Positions 3,816 through 58,206 of a stretch of 64,000 bases of DNA are shown here, in pieces. The translations under genes and the position numbers were made by a program. The stretch is taken from assembly GCA_009694805.1 (NCBI GenBank), contig SICM01000004.1:635-64634 (forward strand). The letters run 5' to 3'. Positions within the stretch are counted from its first letter, which is position 1. Each line of letters starts with the position of its first letter. The DNA comes from Candidatus Latescibacterota bacterium. Its GTDB lineage: Bacteria; Latescibacterota; UBA2968; SICM01. A model generated the notes under the pieces. It was not told the DNA's origin. It did no database searches and worked only from the letters and a program-made list of their open reading frames with translations.

Positions 3816-3874
3816 GGGAGACCCCACCCCCGGCCCGCCACCCACCCTGTCGCTCCCGTGGGTCGCGACCCCTG

Positions 3875-4113
3875 CCCTCCTACAAGAGGGGAGGGGGGAA
3901 GTGCAATAAACCAGTGCGACGTACAGATCAAAAGCAGGCGCGCCGCCAGAAACCCCCACCACCGGAGTTCAGCAGAAGCAACCCACACGCCGGGGGCACA
4001 TCATGGCGTGCGACAACTGAATGTTAAGGTTGCGGCGCGCCAAAGCCCCCCGCGGCGCATGAGCGGGCGTGCTTCTTTGGCCCCACCTTTCTTGCACGAG
4101 CAAGAAAGGTGGG
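3875..4113 (+). repeat. composite structured element, copy A (core 3936-4113)
   Basis: CCCTCC-TACAAGA-GGGGAGGG hairpin, GTACAGATCAAAAGC, GGCGCGCCGC...GCGGCGCGCC closing stem, loop-GGCGCATGA hairpin, terminal CCACCTTTCTTGC-ACGA-GCAAGAAAGGTGG hairpin. Confidence 0.85.
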
Positions 4114-4134
4114 AATGCCGCTAAGAGAATCGTC

Positions 4135-6739: not shown

Positions 6740-6756
6740 CGATCCTCCCCAAAAGC

Positions 6757-6870
6757 AGGTGCCAGGTGTCAGGTATCAGGTGTCAGGAAAGGCAAAGACA
6801 GGTGTCAGATATCAGGTTTCGGCAAAAACCGAGATCGTTTTTGTTCCCCCGAAACCCGACACCCGACCCC
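6757..6870. repeat. heptamer array pair: (CAGGTGn)x4-6 and inverted (CCCGACA)x2
   Basis: caggtgc caggtgt caggtat caggtgt cagg ... cccgaca cccgacc. Confidence 0.85.
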
Positions 6871-7918: not shown

Positions 7919-8001
7919 CATGCAAATGGCAAATGTGAAGCGTATCTCGTATCTCGTAGGAATCTTTTTCGCTTCACGCTTCACGCTTCACGCTTCACGC
8001 C
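7919..8001. repeat. heptamer arrays GCAAATG x2, TATCTCG x2, CGCTTCA x4
   Basis: Direct reading. The last CGCTTCA units encode the C-terminus and TGA stop of the FAD oxidoreductase. Confidence 0.85.
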
Positions 8002-9136: not shown

Positions 9137-9155
9137 GCTTTTTTCCTTTAAATCA

Positions 9156-9247
9156 GACCTCACCCACCCCCTTCCCCCTCCCTCTCCGCTTGCGGAGAGG
9201 GAGGGGAGATAAGAGCCTCTCCCCTTAAACATGGGGAGAGTGAGGTC
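9156..9247. repeat. nested GC-rich hairpin element (GACCTCACCC ... GAGTGAGGTC family)
   Basis: Outer GACCTCAC/GTGAGGTC stem encloses CCCTCCCTCTCCGC/GCGGAGAGGGAGGG and CTCTCCCC/GGGGAGAG hairpins. Confidence 0.85.
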
Positions 9248-9269
9248 GCTTCACGCTTCACGCTTCACG
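9247..9269. repeat. heptamer array CGCTTCA x3
   Basis: cgcttca cgcttca cgcttca. Contains the esterase stop codon. Confidence 0.85.
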
Positions 9270-16850: not shown

Positions 16851-16930
16851 AGTGCCAAGTGTCAAGTGCCAAGTGCCAAGTAATCCCCTACGGATTTGAC
16901 GTGGCACGTGATACGTGGCACGTGGCACTT
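16851..16930. repeat. heptamer array pair: (AGTGCCA)x4 and (CGTGGCA)x4
   Basis: agtgcca agtgtca agtgcca agtgcca ... cgtggca cgtgata cgtggca cgtggca. Confidence 0.85.
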
Positions 16931-19490: not shown

Positions 19491-19495
19491 GGTCG

Positions 19496-19560
19496 CATCT
19501 CGTATCTCGTATCTCGTAAACCCTTCTATGCTTCACGGGTTTTCACGCTTCACATTCACC
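19496..19560. repeat. heptamer arrays TATCTCG x3 and degenerate CGCTTCA units
   Basis: catctcg tatctcg tatctcg ta ... gcttcacgggttttcacgcttcacattcac. Contains the Gfo stop codon. Confidence 0.8.
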
Positions 19561-21381: not shown

Positions 21382-22152
21382 TCACTCCTCGCGCACCCGG
21401 TATTGCTCCAGATCACCCCGATACACCAGCCCCAGCGCCTCGCGGGCGCGGGCCGTGTTGCACGTGGCGTCCGCCTCGGGCGTGCCCACGACGTGAAAGA
21501 TGTCGAAATCGACTGTCTCCGACTCCACGGCCAGCCGGCACGCCTCGGCCAGGTCGTGACGGCAGACCCATCCGTTGCGCAGAGGCCGGCCTCCGGCCCC
21601 CAGCTTTTCGCGGTGCCGCCCGATGCCCAGACGGGTGTCCACAATGTAGTCGGGCCGCAGCACGATGATTCGCATGCCGTGGGCATCGTGGAAGCTGCGG
21701 CACATCTCCTCCTGAAGCCGTTTGGTCAGAGGATAGAGCCCCCCGTCCGGTCGGCGCACCTCCGAGGTGAAGAAGACCCCCTTCGAATGCACGGTCGGGC
21801 ACGACCCCAGGTGAACGATGTGCCGGATGTTCCGCTGCCGGGCCGACTCCAGGACATTGTAGAGCCCCTTCAGATTGACCAGAAAGGGCTGTTGGTCGTC
21901 CACCCCGTAGGCCCCCTTCTCAGACGAGAAGTAGACCGCGACGTGGATGATGCCGTCCATCCCCTCCGTGGCCCGGTGGACCGTCTGAAAGTCCAACATA
22001 TCCCCGTGTACGACCTCCCCGTCCCACGGCGTCTGCTCCACGGCCCACGCCTCCGGTCCCCGGTCGAACGCCCGGACCGTGTGGCGTCCCTTCATGTTCT
22101 CCAGCACCGCGCGGCCCAGCCATCCGGCCGCGCCGAATAAGACGACCTTCAT
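21382..22152 (-). CDS. NAD-dependent epimerase/dehydratase family protein
   Basis: MKVVLFGAAGWLGRAV Rossmann motif at ATG 22152 with AAAGGAG SD. Confidence 0.8.
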   Translation of the reverse strand: MKVVLFGAAGWLGRAVLENMKGRHTVRAFDRGPEAWAVEQTPWDGEVVHGDMLDFQTVHRATEGMDGIIHVAVYFSSEKGAYGVDDQQPFLVNLKGLYNVLESARQRNIRHIVHLGSCPTVHSKGVFFTSEVRRPDGGLYPLTKRLQEEMCRSFHDAHGMRIIVLRPDYIVDTRLGIGRHREKLGAGGRPLRNGWVCRHDLAEACRLAVESETVDFDIFHVVGTPEADATCNTARAREALGLVYRGDLEQYRVREE

Positions 22153-22211: not shown

Positions 22212-22226
22212 CGCAAATTCGATCCA

Positions 22227-22320
22227 GACCTCACCCCCCGGCCTCCTCTCCCTCCTTCGACTACGCGGCTAACGCCGCTCCGCTCAGGATGCGGGAGAGG
22301 GGGAGAAGCACCCCACCCCC
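22227..22320 (+). repeat. GACCTCACCCC / CCTCTCCC...GGGAGAGG element with long loop
   Basis: The loop tccttcgactacgcggctaacgccgctccgctcaggatgc is homologous (in inverted orientation) to 48823-48935. Confidence 0.85.
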
Positions 22321-22322
22321 TT

Positions 22323-22580
22323 CCCCTCCCCTACAAGAGGGGAGGGGAGAGATAGTGTACAGATCAAAAGCAGGCGCGCCGTCCCGGCTTTCAAGCAGGA
22401 GGTTCGTTCAGGCACGGTGGGGTACGAGCGCCGAAGGCGCGGGGGTACGGCGGAAGGGGCTCGGTCTACCACGGGACCGCGATTACGCAACCCGAACAGA
22501 GTACGGCGCGCCCAGCCCCTCCGGCGCTTGAGGAGCGTGCTTCTTTTGCCCACTTTTCTTGCACGAGCAAGAAAAGTGGG
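22323..22580 (+). repeat. composite structured element, copy B (core 22372-22580, alternative interior)
   Basis: Same 5' and 3' modules as copy A, but the closing stem is GGCGCGCCGT...ACGGCGCGCC and it encloses an unrelated ~120-nt interior. Confidence 0.85.
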
Positions 22581-22605
22581 CAAGCCGTTCAGGGACACGG
22601 TTATC

Positions 22606-23445
22606 CTACCGGTTCAGCATCCGATTCAGCGTCTCCCCCAGAATCAGCTTCTTATCCCCCTCCGGAATGAACGCGCAGTGCGTCCGAAACGCCTCCAGCG
22701 CGTGCTGGTAGGTCATGGTGAACCGGACGACCGGATAGTCCGACCCCCAGCAGAGACGATGCGGCCCGTAATGCTCATACAGCGCCCGGACGATCCACCC
22801 CGTGTCCGAGAAGGGGTAATCCCACCTCACCTGCGAGACATAAGCGAACCCCGACATCTTGATGCAGACATTCTCCTGCCGCGCCGAGGCCAGGACCTCC
22901 TTCAGCATCGGGTGCGGGTACGCCTCCGACGCCTTCGCCCCGGCCATGTGGTGGCACAGGAACGGGACGGACGGAAACCGTCCGGCCAGCTCCCGCACCA
23001 CCGGCTGCAGCCGGGGACCGATCGCCAGGCTGGCGATCAGCTTCAGCTCCTCGGCCTTCCGGAAGAACGCCAGCCCCTCCTCTGACAGAAACCAGGCCCC
23101 GTCGTCCTCCCCCCGCACATAGTGCGTGAACCCCTTGATCGGCCAGCGCCGGGCCGTCTCCGCCAGCCGGCCGGCGGCCCCCGGGGTGTGATAGGTCGAA
23201 GACCAGGAACAGTCCACGTCCGCGAACTGGTGGAGGCGCGTCGGGTGCTTCGCCACGCACCCCGCGACATAGGCGTTGTTGTCCGGGTTGTGGTCGATCT
23301 GCGCGCAGACCAGCACGGCCTGGTCCACCCCGTGAAGGTCCATCTCGTGGAGCAACTGCTCGACCCGGCCCCGGCTCTCCCCGTCCGGCACGGGCGGCTG
23401 ATACGGCCAGCGCTCCCAGGCGTGGGTATGCGAGTCTATGATCAT
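22606..23445 (-). CDS. amidohydrolase_2 family (TIM-barrel metal-dependent hydrolase)
   Basis: MIIDSHTHAW metal-binding motif at ATG 23445 with AAGGAG SD. Confidence 0.85.
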   Translation of the reverse strand: MIIDSHTHAWERWPYQPPVPDGESRGRVEQLLHEMDLHGVDQAVLVCAQIDHNPDNNAYVAGCVAKHPTRLHQFADVDCSWSSTYHTPGAAGRLAETARRWPIKGFTHYVRGEDDGAWFLSEEGLAFFRKAEELKLIASLAIGPRLQPVVRELAGRFPSVPFLCHHMAGAKASEAYPHPMLKEVLASARQENVCIKMSGFAYVSQVRWDYPFSDTGWIVRALYEHYGPHRLCWGSDYPVVRFTMTYQHALEAFRTHCAFIPEGDKKLILGETLNRMLNR

Positions 23446-25541: not shown

Positions 25542-25615
25542 AAAATGCAAAATGTAAAATGCAAAATACACATTCATCTTCCACTTTTTGTTTTGCACTT
25601 TGCACTTTGCACTTT
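25542..25615. repeat. heptamer array pair: (AAATGCA)x4 and (CTTTGCA)x3-4
   Basis: aaatgca aaatgta aaatgca aaataca ... ttttgca ctttgca ctttgca cttt, in a convergent spacer. Confidence 0.85.
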
Positions 25616-35709: not shown

Positions 35710-36567
35710 ATGAGCGATCAGATCTTCGACGTCAACGGAGCCGATTTCAAACAGAAAGTGATTGAAGAATCCTTCCGCCGGGCCGTGGTGGTGGATTTCT
35801 GGGCGGCCTGGTGCGGGCCCTGCCGGACCCTGGGCCCCGTCCTGGAACAGGCGGTGACCGCCCAGGGCGACCGCGTCGCCCTGGCGAAGGTGGATGTCGA
35901 CCGGAATCCGGAACTGTCCGTGACCTACCAGGTCAGAGGCATCCCGGCCGTCAAGATCTTCCGGGACGGGAAGGTCGTCAGGGAATTTGTGGGGGCACTG
36001 CCCCGATCCGAGGTCGAGGCCATCCTGAAGTCCGTGGTGCCCGACGAGAATGACGACCTCCTGAAACAGGCCGACGCCCTCGCGGAACGCGGCGACGCGG
36101 CCGGCGCGGCCGATCTTTACGAACGAGTCCTTCTGGACAGGCCGGACGACGAACGCGCCACGGTTGGGCTCGCTCACGCCTTCCTGAACCTGAAGCGCCA
36201 CCCCCGCGTCCGGGAGCTGGCCGGAAAGATCCAGGAGGGCAGTCCCTTCTACGACAGGGCCAGGGCCCTCCTGAAGCAGGTCGACTACGCCGAATCCTGC
36301 GGGACGGCAGGGGGCCGCGCCGCCTGTGAAAAACGGGTGGCGGAGAACCCGGAGGACCTCGACGCCCGCTTCGACCTGGCCGTCTGCTGCGCCACGGAAG
36401 GGGACTACGCCGCCGCCCTGAAGGAGTGGCTCACCATCGTGGAGCGCAAAAAGAGGTTCCGGGACGGGGCGGCCAAGGACGCCATGGTCTCCATCTTCCA
36501 CCTGCTCGGCCAGAACCACGAGATCGTGGGGGACTACCCGCAGCGCCTCTACCGGGCGCTGTATTGA
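35710..36567 (+). CDS. thioredoxin-domain plus TPR-like protein (YbbN/CnoX-like)
   Basis: WAAWCGPC thioredoxin motif followed by a helical repeat C-terminal half. Confidence 0.85.
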   Translation: MSDQIFDVNGADFKQKVIEESFRRAVVVDFWAAWCGPCRTLGPVLEQAVTAQGDRVALAKVDVDRNPELSVTYQVRGIPAVKIFRDGKVVREFVGALPRSEVEAILKSVVPDENDDLLKQADALAERGDAAGAADLYERVLLDRPDDERATVGLAHAFLNLKRHPRVRELAGKIQEGSPFYDRARALLKQVDYAESCGTAGGRAACEKRVAENPEDLDARFDLAVCCATEGDYAAALKEWLTIVERKKRFRDGAAKDAMVSIFHLLGQNHEIVGDYPQRLYRALY

Positions 36568-36650
36568 CCTCACCCCCCGGCCCCCTCTCCCACGGGAGAG
36601 GGGGAGAAGAGCACCCCTCCCCCGACCCCTCCTCGACACGGAGAGGGGAG
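36566..36650 (+). repeat. GACCTCACCCC / CCCTCTCCC-ACG-GGAGAGGG hairpin element
   Basis: Starts within the stop codon of the thioredoxin-TPR gene and lies immediately 5' of composite element copy C. Confidence 0.8.
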
Positions 36651-36696: not shown

Positions 36697-36873
36697 AGGC
36701 GCGCCGCCAGAAACCCCCACCACCAGAGCTCAGCAGAAACAACGAACCCGCCGGGGGCACAAATTTCGGTGCGTCCACAAAACGTTGAGGTTGCGGCGCG
36801 CCCAAGCCCCTCCGGCGTCTGAGGAGCGTGCTTCTTTTGTCCAACTTTTCTTGCACGAGCAAGAAAAGTTGGA
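36697..36873 (+). repeat. composite structured element, copy C
   Basis: Aligns with copies A and D throughout. Terminal hairpin is TCCAACTTTTCTTGC-ACGA-GCAAGAAAAGTTGGA with compensated changes. Confidence 0.85.
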
Positions 36874-37576: not shown

Positions 37577-37654
37577 GCAGGGGTCAGGGGTCAGGGGTCA
37601 GGAAAGCAAAGATCATTGGCCTCTGTTTTCCCCGACCCCCGACCCCTGGTCCCC
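37577..37654. repeat. heptamer array pair: (CAGGGGT)x3 and (CCCCGAC)x2-3
   Basis: caggggt caggggt caggggt cagg ... ccccgac ccccgac ccctggt cccc. Confidence 0.85.
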
Positions 37655-40714: not shown

Positions 40715-41889
40715 CCCTGCGCCGAATCAAGGTCCTGCACGTCATCACCCGGCTGTCCGTGGGAGGCGCCCCTCAGAACCTCCTCGCCATCGCCGGAGGG
40801 CTGGACAGGGATCGCTACGAGGTCTCCGTCGTCTGCGGAACGGGCGATCCGTCGGAGGGGAGCCTGATGGACCGCGCAGCGGCCCTGGGCGTCCCGGTCC
40901 GCGTCCTCCCCGGCCTCCAGCGGGAGATCGCCCCCGCGCAGGACCTCCTCACCTTCTGGCGTCTCTTCCGGACGATCCGGAGGGGTGGATACCAGATCGT
41001 CCACACGCACATCTCGAAGGCCGGCGTGCTGGGACGCCTGGCCGCGGCCGCCGCGGGCGTCCCCGTCATCCTGCACACCTACCACGGGGACGTGTTTCGG
41101 TCCTACTTCAGCCCGTTCAGGAGCCGCGTCCTCCTGACGTTCGAGCAGGCCGCAGCCGCCGTCTCGGACCGGCTGATCGAGGTCAGCCAGGCCACACAGG
41201 ACCGCCACGTGGCCTACGGCGTCGCGCGTCCGGACCGGTTCACCGTCATCCCCAACGGCATCGACCTGGCCCCCTATGACCGGACGCCCCCGGAGGCCCG
41301 TGCCATTCGTGCGCAACTCGGCCTCCCCCCGGAGGCCCCGGTCATCGGGACCGTGGCCATGCTCGTCCCGGTGAAACGCATCGACGTCATGATCGCAGCC
41401 ATGGAGACCGTCGTCCGGGCGCTCCCCGAAGTGTTGCTGCTGATCGTCGGCGACGGCGGGCTGCGCACCGCGCTTCAGGAGAGAGCGACCACCCCGTCGC
41501 TGTCCGGTCGCATCCGTTTCCTCGGCCTCCGGGACGACGTGCCGAACCTGTTGCCCGCCTTCGACGTCTTCGCCCTGTCGTCGGACGACGAGGGATACCC
41601 CACCTCCCTGATCGAGGCGATGGCCGCCGGACGCCCCGTCGTGGCGACCGATGTGGGCGGCGTCTCCGAAGTCGCAAGACACGGCGAAAGCGGCCTGCTG
41701 GTCCCCCGCAGAGACCCGGATCGCCTGGCCGACGCCCTCCTCTCGCTCCTCAACGCCCCCGACCGGGCGAGGGCGATGGGCCTCAGGGGACGCCAGACCG
41801 CGCAGGAACGGTTCGACGTGCGGCGGATGGTGGAGCGGGTGGACGCGCTGTATCAGGAATTGCTGCGCGAGAAGGGGATAGAAACATAG
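40711..41889 (+). CDS. glycosyltransferase family 4 (GT-B, RfaG-like). Start codon uncertain and non-canonical.
   Basis: IKVLHVITRLSVGGAP N-terminus and the C-terminal EGYPTSLIEAMAAGRPVVATDVGG motif. No ATG/GTG/TTG lies near the conserved N-terminus. Confidence 0.78.
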   Translation: MTLRRIKVLHVITRLSVGGAPQNLLAIAGGLDRDRYEVSVVCGTGDPSEGSLMDRAAALGVPVRVLPGLQREIAPAQDLLTFWRLFRTIRRGGYQIVHTHISKAGVLGRLAAAAAGVPVILHTYHGDVFRSYFSPFRSRVLLTFEQAAAAVSDRLIEVSQATQDRHVAYGVARPDRFTVIPNGIDLAPYDRTPPEARAIRAQLGLPPEAPVIGTVAMLVPVKRIDVMIAAMETVVRALPEVLLLIVGDGGLRTALQERATTPSLSGRIRFLGLRDDVPNLLPAFDVFALSSDDEGYPTSLIEAMAAGRPVVATDVGGVSEVARHGESGLLVPRRDPDRLADALLSLLNAPDRARAMGLRGRQTAQERFDVRRMVERVDALYQELLREKGIET

Positions 41890-41902
41890 CATAGACTCAG
41901 GA

Positions 41903-42076
41903 AGGCGCGCCGCCAGAAACCCCCACTACCGGAGCATAGCAGAAGCAACCCACTCTCCGGGGGCACATCATGACGTGCGACAACTGAACGTCAAGGTTGC
42001 GGCGCGCCAAGCCTCCCTGGCGCTTGAAGGGCGTGCTTCTTTTGCCCACTTTTCTTGCACGAGCAAGAAAAGTGGG
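41903..42076 (+). repeat. composite structured element, copy D
   Basis: Aligns with copies A and C. Terminal hairpin is CCCACTTTTCTTGC-ACGA-GCAAGAAAAGTGGG. Confidence 0.85.
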
Positions 42077-42123: not shown

Positions 42124-42972
42124 ATGATTCTCGTCACCGGCGCGACCGGCTACACCGGCCCCTTCGTCGTGGAGGCGCTCATACGGGCGGAGGAGGAGGT
42201 CAAGGTGTTCGTGCGGCGAACGAGCGATACCGCAGCCATCCGGGAGGCCGGCGCAGACGTCGTCCTCGGAGACCTGGAGGACGAGCGCTCCCTCCTGGAC
42301 GCCCTGGACGGCGTGGACGCCGTCGTCGGGGTCGCTCACATCCGCCACGCCCCGACCCTGGTCCGGGCCTGCGCAGCGCGAGGCGTGACGCGGGGCATCT
42401 TCTTCAGCTCGACCCGTCTGGCCTCCAGAGTCCCCTCTCCCACCGTGCAGGAGGTGATCGACGGAGAGGCCGCCGTGGCCGGGTCCAGGCTCGACTTCAC
42501 GCTCCTCCGCCCCACGATGATCTACGGCCCCGGCGAAGATCGGAACATCTCCCGCATCCGGAGACACATCCGGACGCACCGGATCATCCCGGTGTTCGGG
42601 AGCGGAGAGCGCCTCCAGCAGCCCGTGTTCGTCCGGGACGTGGCCCAGGCCGTGCCCCGGGTGCTCTGCCGGGCCGCCACGACCCGGAAGGCCTACGTCC
42701 TGGCCGGCCCGAAGCCGGTCTCCCACATCGGCCTGATCGACGCCGTCGCGGCAGCGGAGGGGCGGTGGGTCGTGAAGGTCTATCTCCCTGTCCGGATGTC
42801 CGCCTGGGGGGCCGGGGTCTACGAGCGATTTTCGAGCGAACCCCGCATCACCGCCGAACAGGTCCGGAGATTCGACGAGGGGAAGGTGTTCGACATCTCC
42901 GACGCCCGGCGGGACTTCGGGTACGACCCGGTCCCGTTCGAGGAAGGACTCAGATTAAGCAATACATGCTGA
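42124..42972 (+). CDS. NAD(P)-binding epimerase/dehydratase-like (atypical SDR) protein
   Basis: MILVTGATGYTGPFVVEAL Rossmann motif at ATG 42124. Confidence 0.8.
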   Translation: MILVTGATGYTGPFVVEALIRAEEEVKVFVRRTSDTAAIREAGADVVLGDLEDERSLLDALDGVDAVVGVAHIRHAPTLVRACAARGVTRGIFFSSTRLASRVPSPTVQEVIDGEAAVAGSRLDFTLLRPTMIYGPGEDRNISRIRRHIRTHRIIPVFGSGERLQQPVFVRDVAQAVPRVLCRAATTRKAYVLAGPKPVSHIGLIDAVAAAEGRWVVKVYLPVRMSAWGAGVYERFSSEPRITAEQVRRFDEGKVFDISDARRDFGYDPVPFEEGLRLSNTC

Positions 42973-48935: not shown

Positions 48936-48936
48936 C

Positions 48937-49006
48937 GTTTGCCGTCTGCCGCTTGCCGCCTGCCTTCTGCCTTCTGTCTTTTGCCGTCTGCCGTCTGCCG
49001 TCTCAC
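48937..49006. repeat. heptamer array (nnCTGCC) x10
   Basis: gtttgcc gtctgcc gcttgcc gcctgcc ttctgcc ttctgtc ttttgcc gtctgcc gtctgcc gtctcac. Confidence 0.88.
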
Positions 49007-49751: not shown

Positions 49752-49816
49752 AGTCCAGAGTTCAGAGTCCAGAGTCATAGGCTTTGACCCTGGACCCCGG
49801 ACTCTGGACCCGTGAC
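49752..49816. repeat. heptamer array pair: (AGTCCAG)x3 and (GACyCyG)x4
   Basis: agtccag agttcag agtccag agtc ... gaccctg gaccccg gactctg gacccgt. Confidence 0.85.
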
Positions 49817-51920: not shown

Positions 51921-51984
51921 GAATCATCCACTCCTGGCCACAACAAAACAAGAAAAGCACCACATCAAATGCGTAGAGATTTTA

Positions 51985-52015
51985 CTTGGCACGTGACACT
52001 TGACACTTGACACTC
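51985..52015. repeat. heptamer array (CTTGACA-like) x4
   Basis: cttggca cgtgaca cttgaca cttgaca, same word family as 16851-16930. Confidence 0.8.
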
Positions 52016-55453: not shown

Positions 55454-55531
55454 CATTTGCATTTTGCATTTTGCATTTTCTGCCTTCTGCCTTCTGCCTT
55501 CTTATCTGCGTCTATCTGCGTCTATCTGCGG
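55454..55531. repeat. modular array: (ATTTTGC)x3 + (TTCTGCC)x3 + 10-mer (TCTATCTGCG)x3
   Basis: Direct reading of the spacer between the 175-aa orphan and paralog 1. Confidence 0.9.
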
Positions 55532-55536
55532 ACCCG

Positions 55537-56730
55537 TTACGCCCGCCCATGCTGGGACTCCGCCGGCGCACGATACACCACCTTCAGATGCGGCGTCTCC
55601 AGCCGCCCGTGCCCCTGGAGGCGCGAGGTCAGGCAGCTCTCCAGCATCCCGCTGACGATCAGCGTCCGCTCCGCCGGAAACGGGGCCCTGCCGGTCTCAA
55701 TCATCTCCTCGATCTTGGCCACCAGACAGGCCGAGTAGGTCACATTGGGGATCGGCGTCAGGAAGAACTGCGTGGAGACCGGCGCGGGCGCTCCCTTGAG
55801 CCGCGCCGCGAAGCAGAAGTCCCTGACCGCGCCGTTGAGCATCAGCAGCGTGGCCTTCAGACCGTCATTATACTCGATGAAATAGGCCACCGGTTTCTCC
55901 ACCAGCTTCGGGAGTTCTCCCTGGCCCAGCAGGTCGTAGGTGCGCCCGTCCTCCACCGGGAGGCCGCACGGGCTGTCGCTCCGGGACAGCGCCGCCTCCA
56001 GAAGCGCCTTCGACCAGCGCCCCTCCTCCCCCGCCTTCCACACGGCCTCCCCCTCGATCATCTGCACAGCCCTCACCCCCGTCTCCCCACCCTTCCGCCG
56101 TTCTATCATACATTGCATGGCCTCCAGGGCGTGGTAGTCCATCGCATCTGACCCGCCCCCGCCCACCATCAGCGCGTCCTCGACCTCGCAGTCCAGGGGC
56201 AGCTCCAGGTCCGGCAACCGCCACGTCACCGGCAGGGACGACCCCGCCAGCACGGGAAACCGGAGACGCCGGGCGTCGTCCAGCATCTCCCTGGCCTTCT
56301 CGAAGCTGGTGGAGAGGTGCTTGTCGTTGTAGACCGGGACCCCTCTGCCGTCCGCTTCAAACACCTTGACGCACGCCTTGAAGAACGCGTGGCGCGGGTA
56401 GAGCTTCTGCCCCAACTCATTGGTCGGGTAATCCCCGTGCTCCCCGATGATCAGGACAGCATCCACGGCCAGCCGGTCGCCCCCGCAGCGCAGCGCCTCG
56501 GCGATCGTGGGGTACACGCGAAACCCGAACTCACGCGCCCGGTCCACGCTCTGGTCGCCTCCGGGTTTCTGGTCCACATACAGGGAGACGACCCGCATGT
56601 CGGGCCGCCGCCAGCGCCCCTCGTAGGGGTACCCGACCAGGAAGCGGTCCACGAAGTGCTGGGCGTGCGACAGGTAGCGGTAGACCGTGGCGACCACCGC
56701 GATGCGTTTGGGAGAGGAACCGGAAGTCAT
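55537..56730 (-). CDS. uncharacterised 397-aa protein, paralog 1 of a tandem pair
   Basis: AAGGAGAA SD. Collinear similarity to 56887..58080 along the full length. Confidence 0.65.
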   Translation of the reverse strand: MTSGSSPKRIAVVATVYRYLSHAQHFVDRFLVGYPYEGRWRRPDMRVVSLYVDQKPGGDQSVDRAREFGFRVYPTIAEALRCGGDRLAVDAVLIIGEHGDYPTNELGQKLYPRHAFFKACVKVFEADGRGVPVYNDKHLSTSFEKAREMLDDARRLRFPVLAGSSLPVTWRLPDLELPLDCEVEDALMVGGGGSDAMDYHALEAMQCMIERRKGGETGVRAVQMIEGEAVWKAGEEGRWSKALLEAALSRSDSPCGLPVEDGRTYDLLGQGELPKLVEKPVAYFIEYNDGLKATLLMLNGAVRDFCFAARLKGAPAPVSTQFFLTPIPNVTYSACLVAKIEEMIETGRAPFPAERTLIVSGMLESCLTSRLQGHGRLETPHLKVVYRAPAESQHGRA

Positions 56731-56756
56731 GCGGAAGGTTCTCCTTCGAATGCTGA

Positions 56757-56891
56757 ATGTCGAATGTCGAATGTCGAATCCCCCATTCGCACTTCGTCAT
56801 TCGTCCTTCGCACTTCTGGTGCGGATCACATCTTACAGGTTTTATCTGCGTTTATCTGCGCCCATCTGCGGATTACGCTTTACGCTTCACG
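56757..56891. repeat. modular array: (GAATGTC)x4 with inverted (CATTCGn) units + 10-mer (nnnATCTGCG)x3 + (TTACGCT)x2
   Basis: Direct reading of the spacer between the two 397-aa paralogs. Confidence 0.9.
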
Positions 56892-58080
56892 TCCTCCAGA
56901 ACGTCGATTCTTGAGTCGGCGGGTACGCGATGTCCAGGTGGGGCGTCTCCTGCCGTTTCTGCTCCTGATGCAGGCTCTCCACCCCGGCGGCCACCAGGCC
57001 CGTGGTCAGCAGCGTCCGCTCCACCGGATACGACGGCCTGCCGGTCAGGAACATCTGCTCGATGTGGTGGATCTGCGGGGAGAAGAAGTTGGCCAGCGTC
57101 GCGCGGTCCGGCGGCATCGGCAGGTACATCTGCGTGGACAGAGGACTTTCGCGGTCCTCCAGGTGCGCGGCGAAGTTGAAGTCCTGCACCAGGCCGTTCA
57201 GCAGGACCATCGTGCACCGCAGCCCGTCCAGATGCTCGTAGTGATACGCGATCGGGTCCTTGACGATCTCTTTCATCTCATCCCGCGTCGGGAAGACGTG
57301 GTTGAACCCCTTCCGCGACGGCGTGAGGGTGTGGCTGCGGCAGAGCGCGGCCTCGAACAGCTCGCGCGACCAGACCCCCTCGTGATGCGCCTCCCAGAAT
57401 TTGTCACCCCGATAGGCCTGGAGCCACCGCACCCCCTTTTCGCCCCCCTCCCGGCGCTCGGCCATGCACTGGATCGTCTCCAGCGCGTGGAAGTCGTAGC
57501 TGTCCACGCCGCCATAGCCCACGCACAGCGCCTCCCGGACGCGCGCGCCCAGGGGCATGTCCAGAGCGGGCGTGCGCCAGGTGACCGGCAGGGATGAACC
57601 GGCCATGAACGCGAACCCCATCTCCCGCGCCGTGTCGTACATCTCCCGCGCCCATGCCCACTTCCAGGACAGATGCTTGTCATTGAACAGGGGCGCGGTC
57701 CGGCCGCTCATCCTGTAGACCGCCGCGACCTGCTGGAACAGCTCATAGCGCGGGTAGAGGCGCTGCTCCTTTTCGGTCTTCCGGTAGTCCCCGTGCTCCC
57801 CGATCAGAAGCACCCCGTCCACGGCCAGGTCCCGTCCGCCCAGCGTCAGGGCATCCGCGACCGTCGGATAAACCTTCATGGACGGAAAGCGGGCGGCCCG
57901 GTCCGCGCTCAGATCGCCCTCCTTGACCTGGTCCACATAGAGCGAGACCAGGTCCATCTCCGGACGGTGGTGCCGGCCATTCCAGCCGTAGCCCTCTAAG
58001 AACCGGTCGATGAAGTGCTGCGCGTGGGCGTACTTCTGGACGATCGTGACGATGGCCGCGATCTTGGGGCGTCTGGTCAT
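56887..58080 (-). CDS. uncharacterised 397-aa protein, paralog 2 of a tandem pair
   Basis: GGCAGGAG SD. Shares HAQHF-DRFL-GY, VSLYVDQ, IGEHGDY, NDKHLS, AGSSLPVTWR, HALE--QCM-ERR-GGE-GVR blocks with paralog 1. Confidence 0.65.
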   Translation of the reverse strand: MTRRPKIAAIVTIVQKYAHAQHFIDRFLEGYGWNGRHHRPEMDLVSLYVDQVKEGDLSADRAARFPSMKVYPTVADALTLGGRDLAVDGVLLIGEHGDYRKTEKEQRLYPRYELFQQVAAVYRMSGRTAPLFNDKHLSWKWAWAREMYDTAREMGFAFMAGSSLPVTWRTPALDMPLGARVREALCVGYGGVDSYDFHALETIQCMAERREGGEKGVRWLQAYRGDKFWEAHHEGVWSRELFEAALCRSHTLTPSRKGFNHVFPTRDEMKEIVKDPIAYHYEHLDGLRCTMVLLNGLVQDFNFAAHLEDRESPLSTQMYLPMPPDRATLANFFSPQIHHIEQMFLTGRPSYPVERTLLTTGLVAAGVESLHQEQKRQETPHLDIAYPPTQESTFWRT

Positions 58081-58104
58081 GGGCGACTCCTGCCTCTCAG
58101 TTTC

Positions 58105-58206
58105 TCATTTTGCACTTTGCATTTTGCATTTTCTGCCTTCTACCTTCCGTCTTTCGCCTTCCTATCTGCGTTCATCTGCGCCCATCTGCGGATCACGCCT
58201 TACGCC
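58105..58206. repeat. modular array: (yTTTGCA)x4 + degenerate (TTCTGCC)x4 + 10-mer (nnnATCTGCG)x3 + CACGCCTTACGCC
   Basis: Same module order as 55454-55531. Overlaps the 3' end of the GT2 gene. Confidence 0.9.

Follow-up and report, generated by a model that had tools for sequence, protein, structure and literature searches.

What is a hairpin-rich intergenic sequence that recurs four times, always on the plus strand, in a 64,000-nt stretch of a Candidatus Latescibacterota genome (GCA_009694805.1, contig SICM01000004.1, positions 635 to 64,634; hereafter the window)? A preliminary description, made from the letters alone, left two readings side by side, a new structured RNA and a miniature mobile element. 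Here we ask how far each of them holds.

Results

The four copies had been placed at 3936-4113 (copy A), 22372-22580 (B), 36697-36873 (C) and 41903-42076 (D), and both positions and strand were borne out, as was the arrangement of the flanking genes, which are convergent around A, both on the minus strand around B and both on the plus strand around C and D. The bounds were nearly right, but the true unit begins ∼15-20 nt further upstream, at GTACAGATCAAAAG. Each of the four copies contains the linker GCGTGCTTCTTT once and the rest of the window has none, and the hairpin core pattern TTCTTKSNNNNSMAAGAA gave 4 matches there against 0.02 expected; four copies are far beyond chance. The stem motif GGCGCGCC was considered as a special site in its own right and rejected, its 8 occurrences outside the elements being close to the 6.4 expected by chance for the whole window.

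The units are 180-250 nt long, contain no conserved open reading frame and share a constant frame: a short, A-rich leader; a stem of 10-12 bp built on GGCGCGCC; a G+C-rich small hairpin with the loop GGCGYNUGA (GGCGYNTGA in DNA); the linker, as the stretch GCGUGCUUCUUU(U)G; and a terminal hairpin of 14-15 bp that is rich in A/U. This frame encloses an exchangeable structured insert of ∼85-125 nt, which occurs in five types or more; type 1 is present in copies A, C and D, type 2 in copy B. The closing stem of 10 bp had been described correctly (GGCGCGCCGC/GCGGCGCGCC, in copy B GGCGCGCCGT/ACGGCGCGCC), and so had the small hairpin with its 9-nt loop, the linker and the terminal hairpin with an ACGA loop. 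Copy B, in contrast, is not a longer version of the others; the interior enclosed by its stem is unrelated in sequence and defines a separate subtype.

Copy A (plus strand, as all features given here) is preceded by a C/T-rich hairpin, CCCTGCCCTCC TACAA GAGGGGAGGGG at 3870-3898, read directly as an accompanying module. Its leader GTACAGATCAAAAGCA (3921-3936) is common to B (GTACAGATCAAAAGCA) and C (GTACAGGGCAAAAGAA), and its closing stem (3937-3946 and 4032-4041) holds the type-1 insert, the whole spanning 3937-4041. The small hairpin follows at 4044-4073, with CCCGC at 4049-4053, the loop GGCGCATGA at 4054-4062, GCGGG at 4063-4067 and additional outer pairs; then come the linker, an exact match at 4067-4078, and the terminal hairpin CCCCACCTTTCTTGC ACGA GCAAGAAAGGTGGG(A) at 4081-4114. 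Copy B has two C/T-rich hairpins upstream (22242-22347; individually 22242-22303 and 22317-22347), and its element runs from the start of the leader at 22357 to 22581, with stem octamers at 22373-22380 and 22505-22512, linker at 22535-22546 and terminal hairpin at 22548-22581. Two C/T-rich hairpins (36581-36648) likewise precede copy C, whose leader starts at about 36681 and whose element ends at 36873 (octamers 36698-36705 and 36795-36802, linker 36826-36837, terminal hairpin 36840-36873). Copy D (41890-42076; octamers 41904-41911 and 42001-42008, linker 42031-42042, terminal hairpin 42045-42076) is without a C/T-rich hairpin and lies between a GT4 glycosyltransferase gene, which stops at 41889, and an epimerase gene, which starts at 42125. 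C/T-rich hairpins thus precede the unit in A, B and C, and they accompany most copies elsewhere.

Several alternative pairings are apparent. The linker is invariant among the four copies, as had been claimed, but it is not simply an unpaired spacer, as its 5' half can extend the small hairpin and then leaves UUCUUUU(G) as a U-rich tract. The leader of copy A, as read from the sequence, is partly an inverted repeat of the linker, and for the closing stem a second pairing is possible, with the 5' half of the small hairpin. In type 1 the loop AGAAGCA is complementary to UGCUUCU of the linker, a possible pseudoknot in which the linker side is fixed by the pattern of the metagenome scan. One hairpin inside type 2 varies at its tip, which differs in nearly every copy and is fully paired each time. 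The terminal hairpin carries extra inserted hairpins in some copies, and in three loci (L110, L139 and L142) the ACGA loop is replaced by a 44-nt sequence; we rejected an insertion sequence at this place, the 44 nt being a short variant insert.

The compensatory changes that had been listed are real and hold when more copies are aligned. In the type-1 alignment (A3, 16 sequences) 98.9% of cells are paired and 8 pairs show two-sided changes, a covariation that none of 500 shuffles reached, and slid controls pair at 40-54%. The type-2 alignment (A4, 11 sequences) gave 97.8% and again 8 two-sided pairs, with 0 of 500 shuffles as high. One pair of the small-hairpin stem occurs in three pair types (UA, CG and GC), and a stem mismatch of some copies (GGCGCGAC as against GGCGCGCC) is compensated in another (GGCGCGACGC/GCGTCGCGCC). 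Covariation had been claimed for three helices; it stands for the small and the terminal hairpin and weakly for the closing stem, where one pair changes from C-G to U-A. The helices are maintained by compensatory change.

Folding energy was of no use for choosing the strand and was dropped as uninformative, since the antisense strand folds as well or better (consensus energy by comparison with the reverse-complement alignment: −70.2 antisense and −64.7 sense for type 1, −55.7 and −57.1 for type 2). Wobble pairs, which differ between strands, were informative. At the five outer stem positions of the terminal hairpin, 54 distinct copies contain 25 G.T against 2 A.C, and therefore one strand folds. 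The pairing of the tail is preserved on one strand only, in support of the earlier claim that selection acts on a single-stranded folded form. This form may be RNA or single-stranded DNA. Quasi-palindrome template-switch repair could create seemingly compensatory changes without selection, and we keep this as a caveat; template switching would yield perfect pairs and not a strand-specific excess of G.T.

Metagenomes supplied ∼35 further copies with this frame and a genome bin six, and copies at unrelated loci are 80-90% identical. The tail, that is the linker with the terminal hairpin, extends much further: beta- and gamma-Proteobacteria and Clostridia have repeat families that contain it. The pattern of the tail scan consisted of the 20-nt hairpin core only, with the linker and outer stem left free, and the linker GGCGTGYTCTTTKG together with a paired outer stem was recovered in Stenotrophomonas, Rhodanobacteraceae, Halothiobacillaceae, Rhodocyclales, Comamonadaceae and several Clostridia bins. 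The tail is hence common to repeat families in other phyla. In Proteobacteria it also forms head-to-head pairs 450-500 nt apart.

No known RNA class had been recognized in the copies, and with Rfam 15 no family reached its gathering threshold anywhere in the window (0 matches); permissive scans of both strands, covering copies A and B and loci with other subtypes, returned chance-level miRNA-type matches only. Plasmids, phages and E. coli genomes yielded no BLAST match to a window unit or to proteobacterial units. Literature searches by sequence string and by topic returned primers, unrelated papers and one useful precedent, ssr9 of ISPpu9. The four copies are members of a large, unannotated family of non-coding hairpin repeats, in an uncultured lineage to which Candidatus Handelsmanbacteria is the closest relative with a name.

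Presence/absence polymorphism, suggested earlier as a comparison to make, was found at the site of copy D, where the gene order GT2-GT4-epimerase is conserved among relatives. The site is empty in three more distant relatives (L098, L100 and L102, with a GT4 protein 66-80% identical to that of the window): the GT4 and epimerase genes overlap in L102 and are separated by 55 nt in L100 and 94 nt in L098. In the relatives whose site counts as filled, GT4 identity to the window is 87-88%; the stretch in L104 begins with a type-1 unit, and that in L103 opens with a C/T-rich hairpin on a contig that ends 34 nt past the stop codon. Because orthologous sites are empty in more distant relatives, the elements arrived by insertion. 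The units entered the DNA between genes, and one has been kept at the same position in closer relatives. Identity of the orthologous copy is 87.4%, as compared with 79.5% at third codon positions of the flanking gene.

The mobile-element reading gains further support from the many copies in related genomes, from a chimera in L110, in which a 5' type-2 fragment is joined to a complete type-1 unit and a C/T-rich hairpin lies inside the complete element, and from the hemJ-accA spacer of Stenotrophomonas, where a unit occurs in either orientation depending on the species. However, this mobility should be interpreted with some caution. Among the copies found no two are identical and no insertion is recent, and mobility is therefore historical and not demonstrated; the elements are old. 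Clean terminal inverted repeats, proposed as a mark of an ordinary MITE, were not found. The leader and stem AAAGAAGGCGCGCC and the linker GGCGTGCTTCTTT match imperfectly (∼13/15), the GGCGCGCC pair is internal to the unit, and full inverted tails occur only as the head-to-head doublets of Proteobacteria. Neither did a consistent direct repeat, as from a target-site duplication, surround the copies; the available empty sites are too diverged to align. Since both hallmarks were not found, an ordinary MITE is not established.

A mobilizing gene was not seen near the units. There was no transposase and no recurrent or multi-copy gene in 94 loci or in ∼490 kb around related copies, and clustering of the open reading frames around the 94 loci yielded only the repeat's own translations and local synteny. 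No autonomous relative, with an open reading frame bounded by the same ends, was present in 94 + 51 loci, nor was a RAYT (Y1 transposase) gene seen within 8-14 kb around each copy. Two tail pairs ∼1.2-1.4 kb apart enclose ordinary host genes, which from their translations we take to be a methyltransferase fragment and hypE.

For roughly half of the copies, the hairpin is followed after 9-100 nt by the start of a co-oriented gene. The genes that follow are unrelated to each other; one is mutS, and others are presumably a GNAT acetyltransferase, a ROK kinase and an amidotransferase, judging by N-terminal sequences alone. Copies in this position must therefore be read through as part of mRNAs. 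Convergent gene contexts (10) outnumber divergent ones (3). Terminator-like sites were called on both strands of copy A, at the linker on the plus strand and at the stem plus leader on the minus strand. The U tracts are interrupted, and, as had been pointed out, none follows the terminal hairpin, which speaks against a plain intrinsic terminator. A sigma-70 scan of the plus strand in and upstream of copy A called no promoter, and the leaders of the other copies, on reading, held no convincing or conserved −10/−35 elements. A discrete plus-strand RNA gene of 180 nt, as had been envisaged, is thus unsupported, because no promoter was found and the orientation relative to neighboring genes is not fixed.

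Discussion

On balance, our results favor the view that the units are a non-autonomous or formerly mobile mosaic repeat, REP/BIME- or MITE-like, that acts as hairpins within flanking transcripts, and we consider this explanation somewhat probable. According to this explanation the units would act as single-stranded hairpins within the transcripts of neighboring genes. The small hairpin with its U-rich tract could be a leaky terminator or a 3'-end protector, and the terminal hairpin may serve as an end-protecting or processing stem beside the start codon that follows or the stop codon of a convergent gene. The elements would have been spread by an enzyme that acts in trans, is encoded at another place in the genome and recognizes the conserved tail. 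An efficient terminator in the small hairpin would be harmful, given copies within operons (copy D) or 9-30 nt before start codons. That a tail of ∼35 nt is conserved in several phyla is not what REP or MITE families usually show, and it counts against our preferred explanation.

The closest resemblance is to the REP/BIME/REPIN sequences of E. coli, Pseudomonas and Stenotrophomonas (SMAG), which are mobilized by RAYT. These too are extragenic, multi-copy mosaics of hairpins and conserved linkers, lie mostly at gene ends, are vertically retained, mostly have no adjoining transposase, form inverted doublets (here in the proteobacterial relatives) and have been proposed to stabilize mRNA or terminate transcription. 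The differences are that the present unit has 180-250 nt and at least five helices and not a single palindrome of 20-40 nt, that it encloses an exchangeable structured insert, and that no link to RAYT was shown; there is no GTAG/CGTC at the hairpin foot, the tag being GGCGTGYTCTTTKG, with its CGTG 8-10 nt from the stem. Moreover, REP families are normally species- or genus-specific, whereas the tail is conserved across phyla. MITEs with effects at the RNA level (Correia elements of Neisseria, ERIC/IRU of enterobacteria) are likewise intergenic and non-coding, of 100-250 bp, fold stably when co-transcribed, show insertion polymorphism between relatives and have subfamilies with common ends and different interiors. 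Our units are short, non-coding and multi-copy as well; the 64 kb contain 4 copies and related contigs dozens. However, Correia and ERIC have clear terminal inverted repeats where ours is weak, Correia has TA duplications where we found none, and the two ends of our element are structurally unlike.

Could a single-strand DNA transposase instead act on the hairpins, namely an HUH enzyme such as serves REP/REPIN (RAYT) or IS200/IS605-derived PATE? The hairpins would then form in single-stranded DNA, the recognition or cleavage tag would be the conserved stretch 5' of the terminal hairpin, and structure would be kept since only foldable copies propagate and not through any use by the host. Structure specific to one strand fits this proposal, as does the combination, across phyla, of a hairpin with a conserved single-stranded tag beside it. 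Where one contig carries several copies, these share an orientation (4/4 in the window, 2/2 in L110 and 2/2 in Ga0209399_10000215; by our own calculation a chance probability of ∼1 in 32), the proteobacterial head-to-head doublets resemble REPINs, small hairpins are nested within the terminal hairpin, and finding no multi-copy transposase is what a single-copy domesticated enzyme would lead one to expect. PATE elements and the omega RNAs of TnpB also share with our units subterminal hairpins that act on one strand, ends without inverted repeats or duplications, and a structured RNA that ends at the element boundary. Still, we regard a single-strand DNA transposase as unlikely. No GTAG or CGTC stands directly at the hairpin foot, no Y1 transposase gene was seen beside any copy, and the upstream C/T-rich and terminal A/U-rich hairpins are unrelated in sequence, unlike the left and right ends of IS200/IS605; a conserved target tetranucleotide, a nearby TnpA or TnpB and an Rfam match are likewise lacking. 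By the usual GC-skew rule the C-rich strand is the lagging strand, and the top strands of IS200/IS605 lie on the lagging-strand template; the sense strand of the units is the C-rich one (GC skew of the window −0.02 to −0.18), that is, the lagging strand and not its template. Finally, locus-by-locus retention with compensated pairs suggests selection after insertion. A related and very unlikely proposal is that of orphan RNA modules hitch-hiking on an RNA-guided or site-specific recombinase, with ssr9 of the IS110-family ISPpu9, bridge, seek and omega RNAs as precedents. In Pseudomonas putida, ssr9 is a selfish module coding for a structured RNA, bounded by short boxes and present alone at several sites beside REP sequences (PMC12288879); our unit of ∼180-230 nt is similarly multi-hairpin, lacks clear inverted repeats or duplications, and mostly adjoins REP-like C/T-rich hairpins, the kind of target used by IS110-family elements. 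But the A'/B' boxes of ssr9 are shared with a transposase-bearing element, and we found no such partner; no IS110, TnpB or IscB gene was seen in any locus, no Rfam match to omega-RNA-type families was obtained, no programmable loops were identified, and copy numbers are far above those of ssr9, of which only a few copies exist (PMC12288879).

Free-standing small RNA genes, paralogous structured RNAs with their own promoters, distinct functions of the inserts and a common 3' domain bound by a conserved protein, would account for a conserved structure whose peripheral hairpins vary in length as in functional RNAs, for the conserved loop GGCGYNUGA, for orientation independent of neighboring genes and for conservation above that of synonymous sites; the small hairpin with its U-rich tract could end such an RNA. 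Yet the terminal hairpin would then follow the putative terminator, copies are found within an operon and 9-30 nt ahead of start codons, one unit is estimated for every 16 kb, Rfam offers no relative, and no sigma-70-like promoter was called on the plus strand in or upstream of copy A, the one copy scanned. We find this improbable. Even less can be said for ordinary, non-mobile terminators or riboswitch-like cis-regulatory leaders that are alike by descent or convergence. Terminator-like calls in copy A, the many copies that closely follow a stop codon or precede a start codon, and the second pairing possible for the closing stem would agree with it, and intrinsic terminators do resemble the small G+C-rich hairpin followed by UUCUUUU and, on the reverse strand, the GGCGCGCC stem followed by UUCUUUUG in copy C and CUGCUUUUG in A and B. 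In our units, however, the U tracts are interrupted, a second long hairpin without a U tract follows, copies lie inside operons and directly before start codons, some are antisense to both neighbors (copy B; five cases), and 80-90% identity at unrelated loci cannot arise by convergence. Empty orthologous sites and functionally unrelated neighbors come close to refuting this reading. A riboswitch or cis-regulatory leader was rejected because the downstream genes are unrelated; there is no fixed position upstream of functionally related genes, and many copies face a convergent gene. Also rejected were an integron attC site, as the units as read have no R''/R' cores (RYYYAAC ... GTTRRRY) and are multi-hairpin and not a single imperfect palindrome, and a CRISPR array, which was ruled out as the identity of the element.

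A bolder proposal is that some conserved machinery uses the tail (GGCGUGYUCUUUKG with the A/U-rich hairpin) as its recognition handle and copies or moves single-stranded units with interchangeable structured "heads". We think it doubtful that this is so. Candidates for such machinery are a reverse transcriptase, an HUH enzyme or an RNA-guided recombinase. If true, the family would be a bacterial counterpart of SINEs, in which the head varies and the 3' tail is common to all, or else a mobile structured RNA of a new class, spanning Proteobacteria, Clostridia and a candidate phylum.

In conclusion, a ∼14-nt linker with a covarying hairpin across distant phyla is of wider interest, given that REPs are normally confined to a genus and that MITE families are mostly genus-specific (PMC11602168). 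The cross-phylum tail points either to a binding motif of a conserved host factor or to a mobilizing enzyme of broad host range, and since carriers of the tail such as Stenotrophomonas, Comamonas and Acidovorax can be grown, the question is directly testable. At the density seen in the window, the units would make up a visible share of the intergenic DNA in this uncultured lineage and, because they adjoin the starts and ends of genes directly, probably influence mRNA ends and operon polarity.

Results

The preliminary description listed four intergenic units, and these were borne out when the stretches were read directly and aligned: copies A (3936-4113), B (22372-22580), C (36697-36873) and D (41903-42076), all on the plus strand. 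Across the window there are exactly four instances of the linker GCGTGCTTCTTT, one per copy, and a degenerate hairpin-core pattern gave 4 matches versus 0.02 expected. Each unit has a short A-rich leader, which in copies A and B reads GTACAGATCAAAAGCA, an insert enclosed by the closing stem GGCGCGCCGC/GCGGCGCGCC, a small G+C-rich hairpin (loop GGCGYNTGA) followed by GCGTGCTTCTTT(T)G, and a terminal A/U-rich hairpin of 14-15 bp with the loop ACGA. The type-1 insert (~85 nt) is common to A, C and D, and is unrelated to the ~120 nt type-2 insert of B. The 5' half of the linker is able to lengthen the small hairpin, leaving UUCUUUU as a U-rich tract; a simple scan of copy A called two terminator-like sites, one at this tract and one, in the minus-strand direction, at the stem and leader.

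The flanking genes are ordinary. Copy A lies between a ROK regulator (plus strand) and an amidohydrolase (minus strand) that both point toward it, and B between two minus-strand genes, a putative epimerase-like gene beginning at 22152 (named from its start MKVVLFGAAGWLG... alone) and an Amidohydro_2 gene with its stop at 22606. Copy C stands between plus-strand thioredoxin-TPR and ThuA genes, and D between plus-strand GT4 glycosyltransferase and epimerase genes. Co-orientation of copies within single contigs (4/4 in the window, 2/2 in the public locus L110 and 2/2 in one further contig) is suggestive only. GC skew is negative over all of the window (1-64000; -0.02 to -0.18 in 8-kb windows), and the plus strand is thus the C-rich strand.

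Metagenomes were scanned with a pattern whose only fixed elements were CGGCGCGCC, a gap and the linker; it returned 51 loci, ~35 of them true units. The terminal hairpin lay outside this pattern and, independently of it, was present with its ACGA loop in nearly all of the ~35. Enclosed inserts sort into discrete types (among the distinct units sorted, 14 copies of type 1, 4 of type 1b, 11 of type 2, 4 of type 3 and 2 singletons of other types), with some motifs common to types 1, 3 and 5. Additional small hairpins are nested in the terminal hairpin at L029, L110, L139 and L142. In three independent units (L110 at 12268, reverse strand; L139; L142) the ACGA loop is swapped for a common 44-nt sequence, CACCCCGCCTGTTGCTGCGCTCGCTCGCAACCCGCCCCGCTGA, with minor differences among copies.

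Covariation was counted on RNAalifold consensus structures. In the type-1 alignment (16 sequences) 98.9% of cells were paired and 8 pairs had changed on both sides; 0/500 shuffles scored as high, and slid controls were 40-54% paired. The corresponding values for the type-2 alignment (11 sequences) were 97.8%, 8 pairs, 0/500 and 38-57%. The stems and compensatory changes reported from the sequence alone were likewise found in the aligned copies. The outer terminal hairpin and the small hairpin gave the strongest covariation, one pair of the latter appearing as UA, CG and GC; the type-2 internal hairpin varies in tip sequence and length in almost every copy while its pairing stays complete. The closing stem is nearly invariant, with one pair changed from C-G to U-A and an A.G mismatch in several copies that is compensated to A-U in L110. 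At five positions of the outer terminal stem in 54 distinct copies we counted 25 G.T wobbles versus 2 A.C mismatches. Since transitions on either strand would yield both equally, tail pairing is kept on the strand as drawn. Helices shared within the type-1 alignment displayed a smaller excess (14 G.U versus 3 A.C cells).

Gene order around the copy D site (GFO/IDH-UVR-GT2-GT4-epimerase-GT-MacB) is kept in relatives, and the state of the GT4-epimerase spacer varies with their distance from the window. The two genes overlap (ATGA) in L102, where GT4 is 79% identical to that of the window, and the spacer lacks a unit in L100 (66%; 55 nt) and L098 (80%; 94 nt). L104 (88%) carries a C/T-rich hairpin and a type-1 unit within which the contig stops; L103 (87%) carries the hairpin, its contig ending 34 nt past the stop codon, so that no unit is visible there. 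One GT4 relative ~80% identical to copy D's neighbour has a member of its at least 90% cluster named Candidatus Handelsmanbacteria. Because the site is empty in more distant relatives and holds a type-1 unit in L104, the copy D unit was inserted and then inherited. The L104 unit is 87.4% identical to copy D over 95 nt; flanking coding DNA is 87.3% identical and third codon positions 79.5%, and the difference between the unit and the third positions indicates constraint or homogenisation. In the hemJ-accA spacer of Stenotrophomonas, the unit points one way in some species and the opposite way in others; the surrounding spacer sequence differs, so the units arrived independently. In a chimera at L110, a 5' piece of a type-2 unit is fused to an entire type-1 unit, C/T-rich hairpin included.

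Short public contigs of close relatives (L097, L103, L104) break in or beside the element or its C/T-rich hairpin. Short-read assemblies are thus fragmented by the repetitiveness of the family, and counts of it in metagenome bins are probably too low.

Scanning genomes with the 20-nt hairpin core alone gave at least 94 loci, whose core identity is by construction, the core being the scan pattern. Beyond the core, three features do not depend on that pattern: a sequence-variable G+C-rich hairpin, the linker GGCGTGYTCTTT(T)G, and an outer stem that is paired and lineage-specific (GTTAC/GTAAC, CCTAC/GTAGG, CCTCC/GGAGG, CTTCC/GGGAG and others). Among the matches listed, the tail is carried by Gamma-Proteobacteria (Stenotrophomonas, Rhodanobacteraceae, Halothiobacillaceae), Beta-Proteobacteria (Sulfuritalea and Denitromonas of the Rhodocyclales; Comamonas, Acidovorax and Inhella of the Comamonadaceae) and several clostridial bins, and window-type units by one bin labelled Gemmatimonas. 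The tail loop is not invariant, as a copy in L057 has TCGT in the same module orientation. No unit matches were found in plasmids, phages or E. coli.

In Proteobacteria the units are often paired head to head at a distance of 450-500 nt; short tandem 6-7-mers lie in the middle of such doublets and make a palindromic centre. The 5' ends of proteobacterial and clostridial units abut such arrays: (TTGCTG)n, (GATCTT)n, (GGCTGTT)n, (CTGTTAC)n and (CCGTTCC)n. The loci concerned, of the L024 type, are from Stenotrophomonas rhizophila (L022, L035, L048, L074, L087), Inhella (L012, L025, L066) or Oscillospiraceae (L005, L073); in the last group (GAAGCCCCCGCAGG)n follows the units. Within 2.5 kb of a Pseudomonadota bin (L029, 2100-4750), four same-orientation units alternate with short A+T-rich opposite-strand ORFs and GTAG-type REPs, resembling a cassette array; in two of them the terminal hairpin holds, in its 3' arm, a 66-nt insert that is identical in both and made up of three small hairpins. 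The two tail-bearing IMG/VR contigs, L095 (1-4000) and L096, start within a longer form of the element, which also has nested TCGCCCG...CGGGCGA stems and another, related A/U-rich hairpin. Past it L095 encodes Mu-like head genes (virion morphogenesis, Mu F-like, portal; named from ORF translations), probably an assembly break at a repeat beside a prophage.

A rough gene caller based on GC3 gave 10 convergent versus 3 divergent contexts, and the upstream gene is co-oriented with the unit in 19/29. About half of the units have a co-oriented gene starting 9-100 nt past the terminal hairpin, and about a third a convergent gene stop 12-70 nt past it. These contexts mean that the sense strand is predicted to be read through within mRNAs at many loci, in which case the small hairpin cannot be an efficient terminator. 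Downstream genes have no relation to one another; they include mutS and, named from N-terminal sequences alone, a putative GNAT acetyltransferase, ROK kinase, amidotransferase and dioxygenase.

Other repeats accompany the units. Copies A, B and C are preceded by C/T-rich hairpins, one or two in each case, with the form CCCCTCCCC-loop-GGGGAGGGG. C/T-rich hairpin doublets (CCCCTCTCC-loop-GGAGAGGGG) with GACCTCAC...GTGAGGTC as an inverted repeat at their borders constitute a second, REPIN-like family. A solitary doublet so bounded lies at 9150-9246, and the rest stand immediately 5' of A (3822-3898), B (22222-22347) and C (36556-36648), as they do for most copies in relatives. Short tandem arrays, with a period of 7 or, in a few, of 10, number at least 17 in the window, among them 6756-6787, 7970-8000, 9247-9269, 16851-16928, 19493-19518, 25542-25615, 37578-37602, 48936-49003, 49752-49776, 51984-52014, 55456-55530, 56746-56860 and 58106-58190. 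Those inspected are all intergenic, some immediately upstream of start codons, and two or three unlike arrays are adjacent in some spacers. Their units vary (CGCTTCA, TTTGCAC, TTTGCAT, TTCTGCC, CGTCTGC x9.7, CAGGGGT, others), and relatives have GGATCAC/GAACCAC upstream of the epimerase gene (L098) and TTTGCAT (L110). At 55500-58200, three tandem segments spaced by ~1.33 kb have coding-like similarity of 73-81%, with near-identical, repeat-filled spacers (families D7, D11, D13, D16); two 397-aa minus-strand ORFs tested there had no Pfam match.

Discussion

Our results somewhat favor the interpretation that the element is a REP/BIME- or MITE-like repeat, mosaic in build and non-autonomous, whose hairpins would act in neighbouring transcripts. 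Insertion brought it into intergenic DNA, the same site in a closer relative is occupied by a unit of that type, and its helices are maintained by compensatory change. The earlier proposal of a new structured RNA or a miniature mobile element is partly upheld, as regards covariation and insertion; clean terminal inverted repeats and a target duplication were not found for the element. The element has no Rfam match.

The main rival holds that the hairpins are substrates of a REP-RAYT-like single-strand DNA transposase, their structure being preserved solely for propagation. Folding energies do not discriminate RNA from single-stranded DNA (copy A, antisense -103.4 versus sense -94.0 kcal/mol; antisense alignments have consensus energies similar to sense). 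A REP-type GTAG or CGTC tag is absent from the element and no autonomous partner of it was found; we consider this rival unlikely. Template-switch repair of quasi-palindromes could produce paired changes without selection, but would not yield the strand-specific wobble excess. We hold a free-standing small-RNA gene family to be improbable.

An orphan RNA module carried by an IS110-type or other RNA-guided recombinase has a precedent in ssr9, which rides with ISPpu9 (PMC12288879). No recurrent neighbour protein was found at the 94 loci listed and no multi-copy protein in ~490 kb around related units, and we think this origin very improbable. Plain terminators or leaders, to which the terminator-like calls in copy A might point, are the least probable of all; a riboswitch-type leader is ruled out by the mutually unrelated downstream genes.

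The exchangeable structured insert in a constant frame, the unlike ends and the conservation of the tail across phyla are unusual features. MITE clusters were mostly genus-specific in a survey of 183,232 genomes (PMC11602168), whereas the tail of this element spans phyla. A mobile structured unit with a common 3' handle, recognised by unlinked conserved machinery, is improbable. In its working the element is closest to REP/BIME mosaics and to MITEs that act in RNA, such as the Correia and ERIC elements. Under our favored interpretation of a mosaic repeat acting in transcripts, the conserved tail would be the obvious handle for the enzyme that spread the element. The small hairpin and U-rich tract may then serve as a leaky terminator or 3'-end protector and the terminal hairpin as a stem for end protection or processing, and the AU-rich linker that separates them would be a likely cleavage site.
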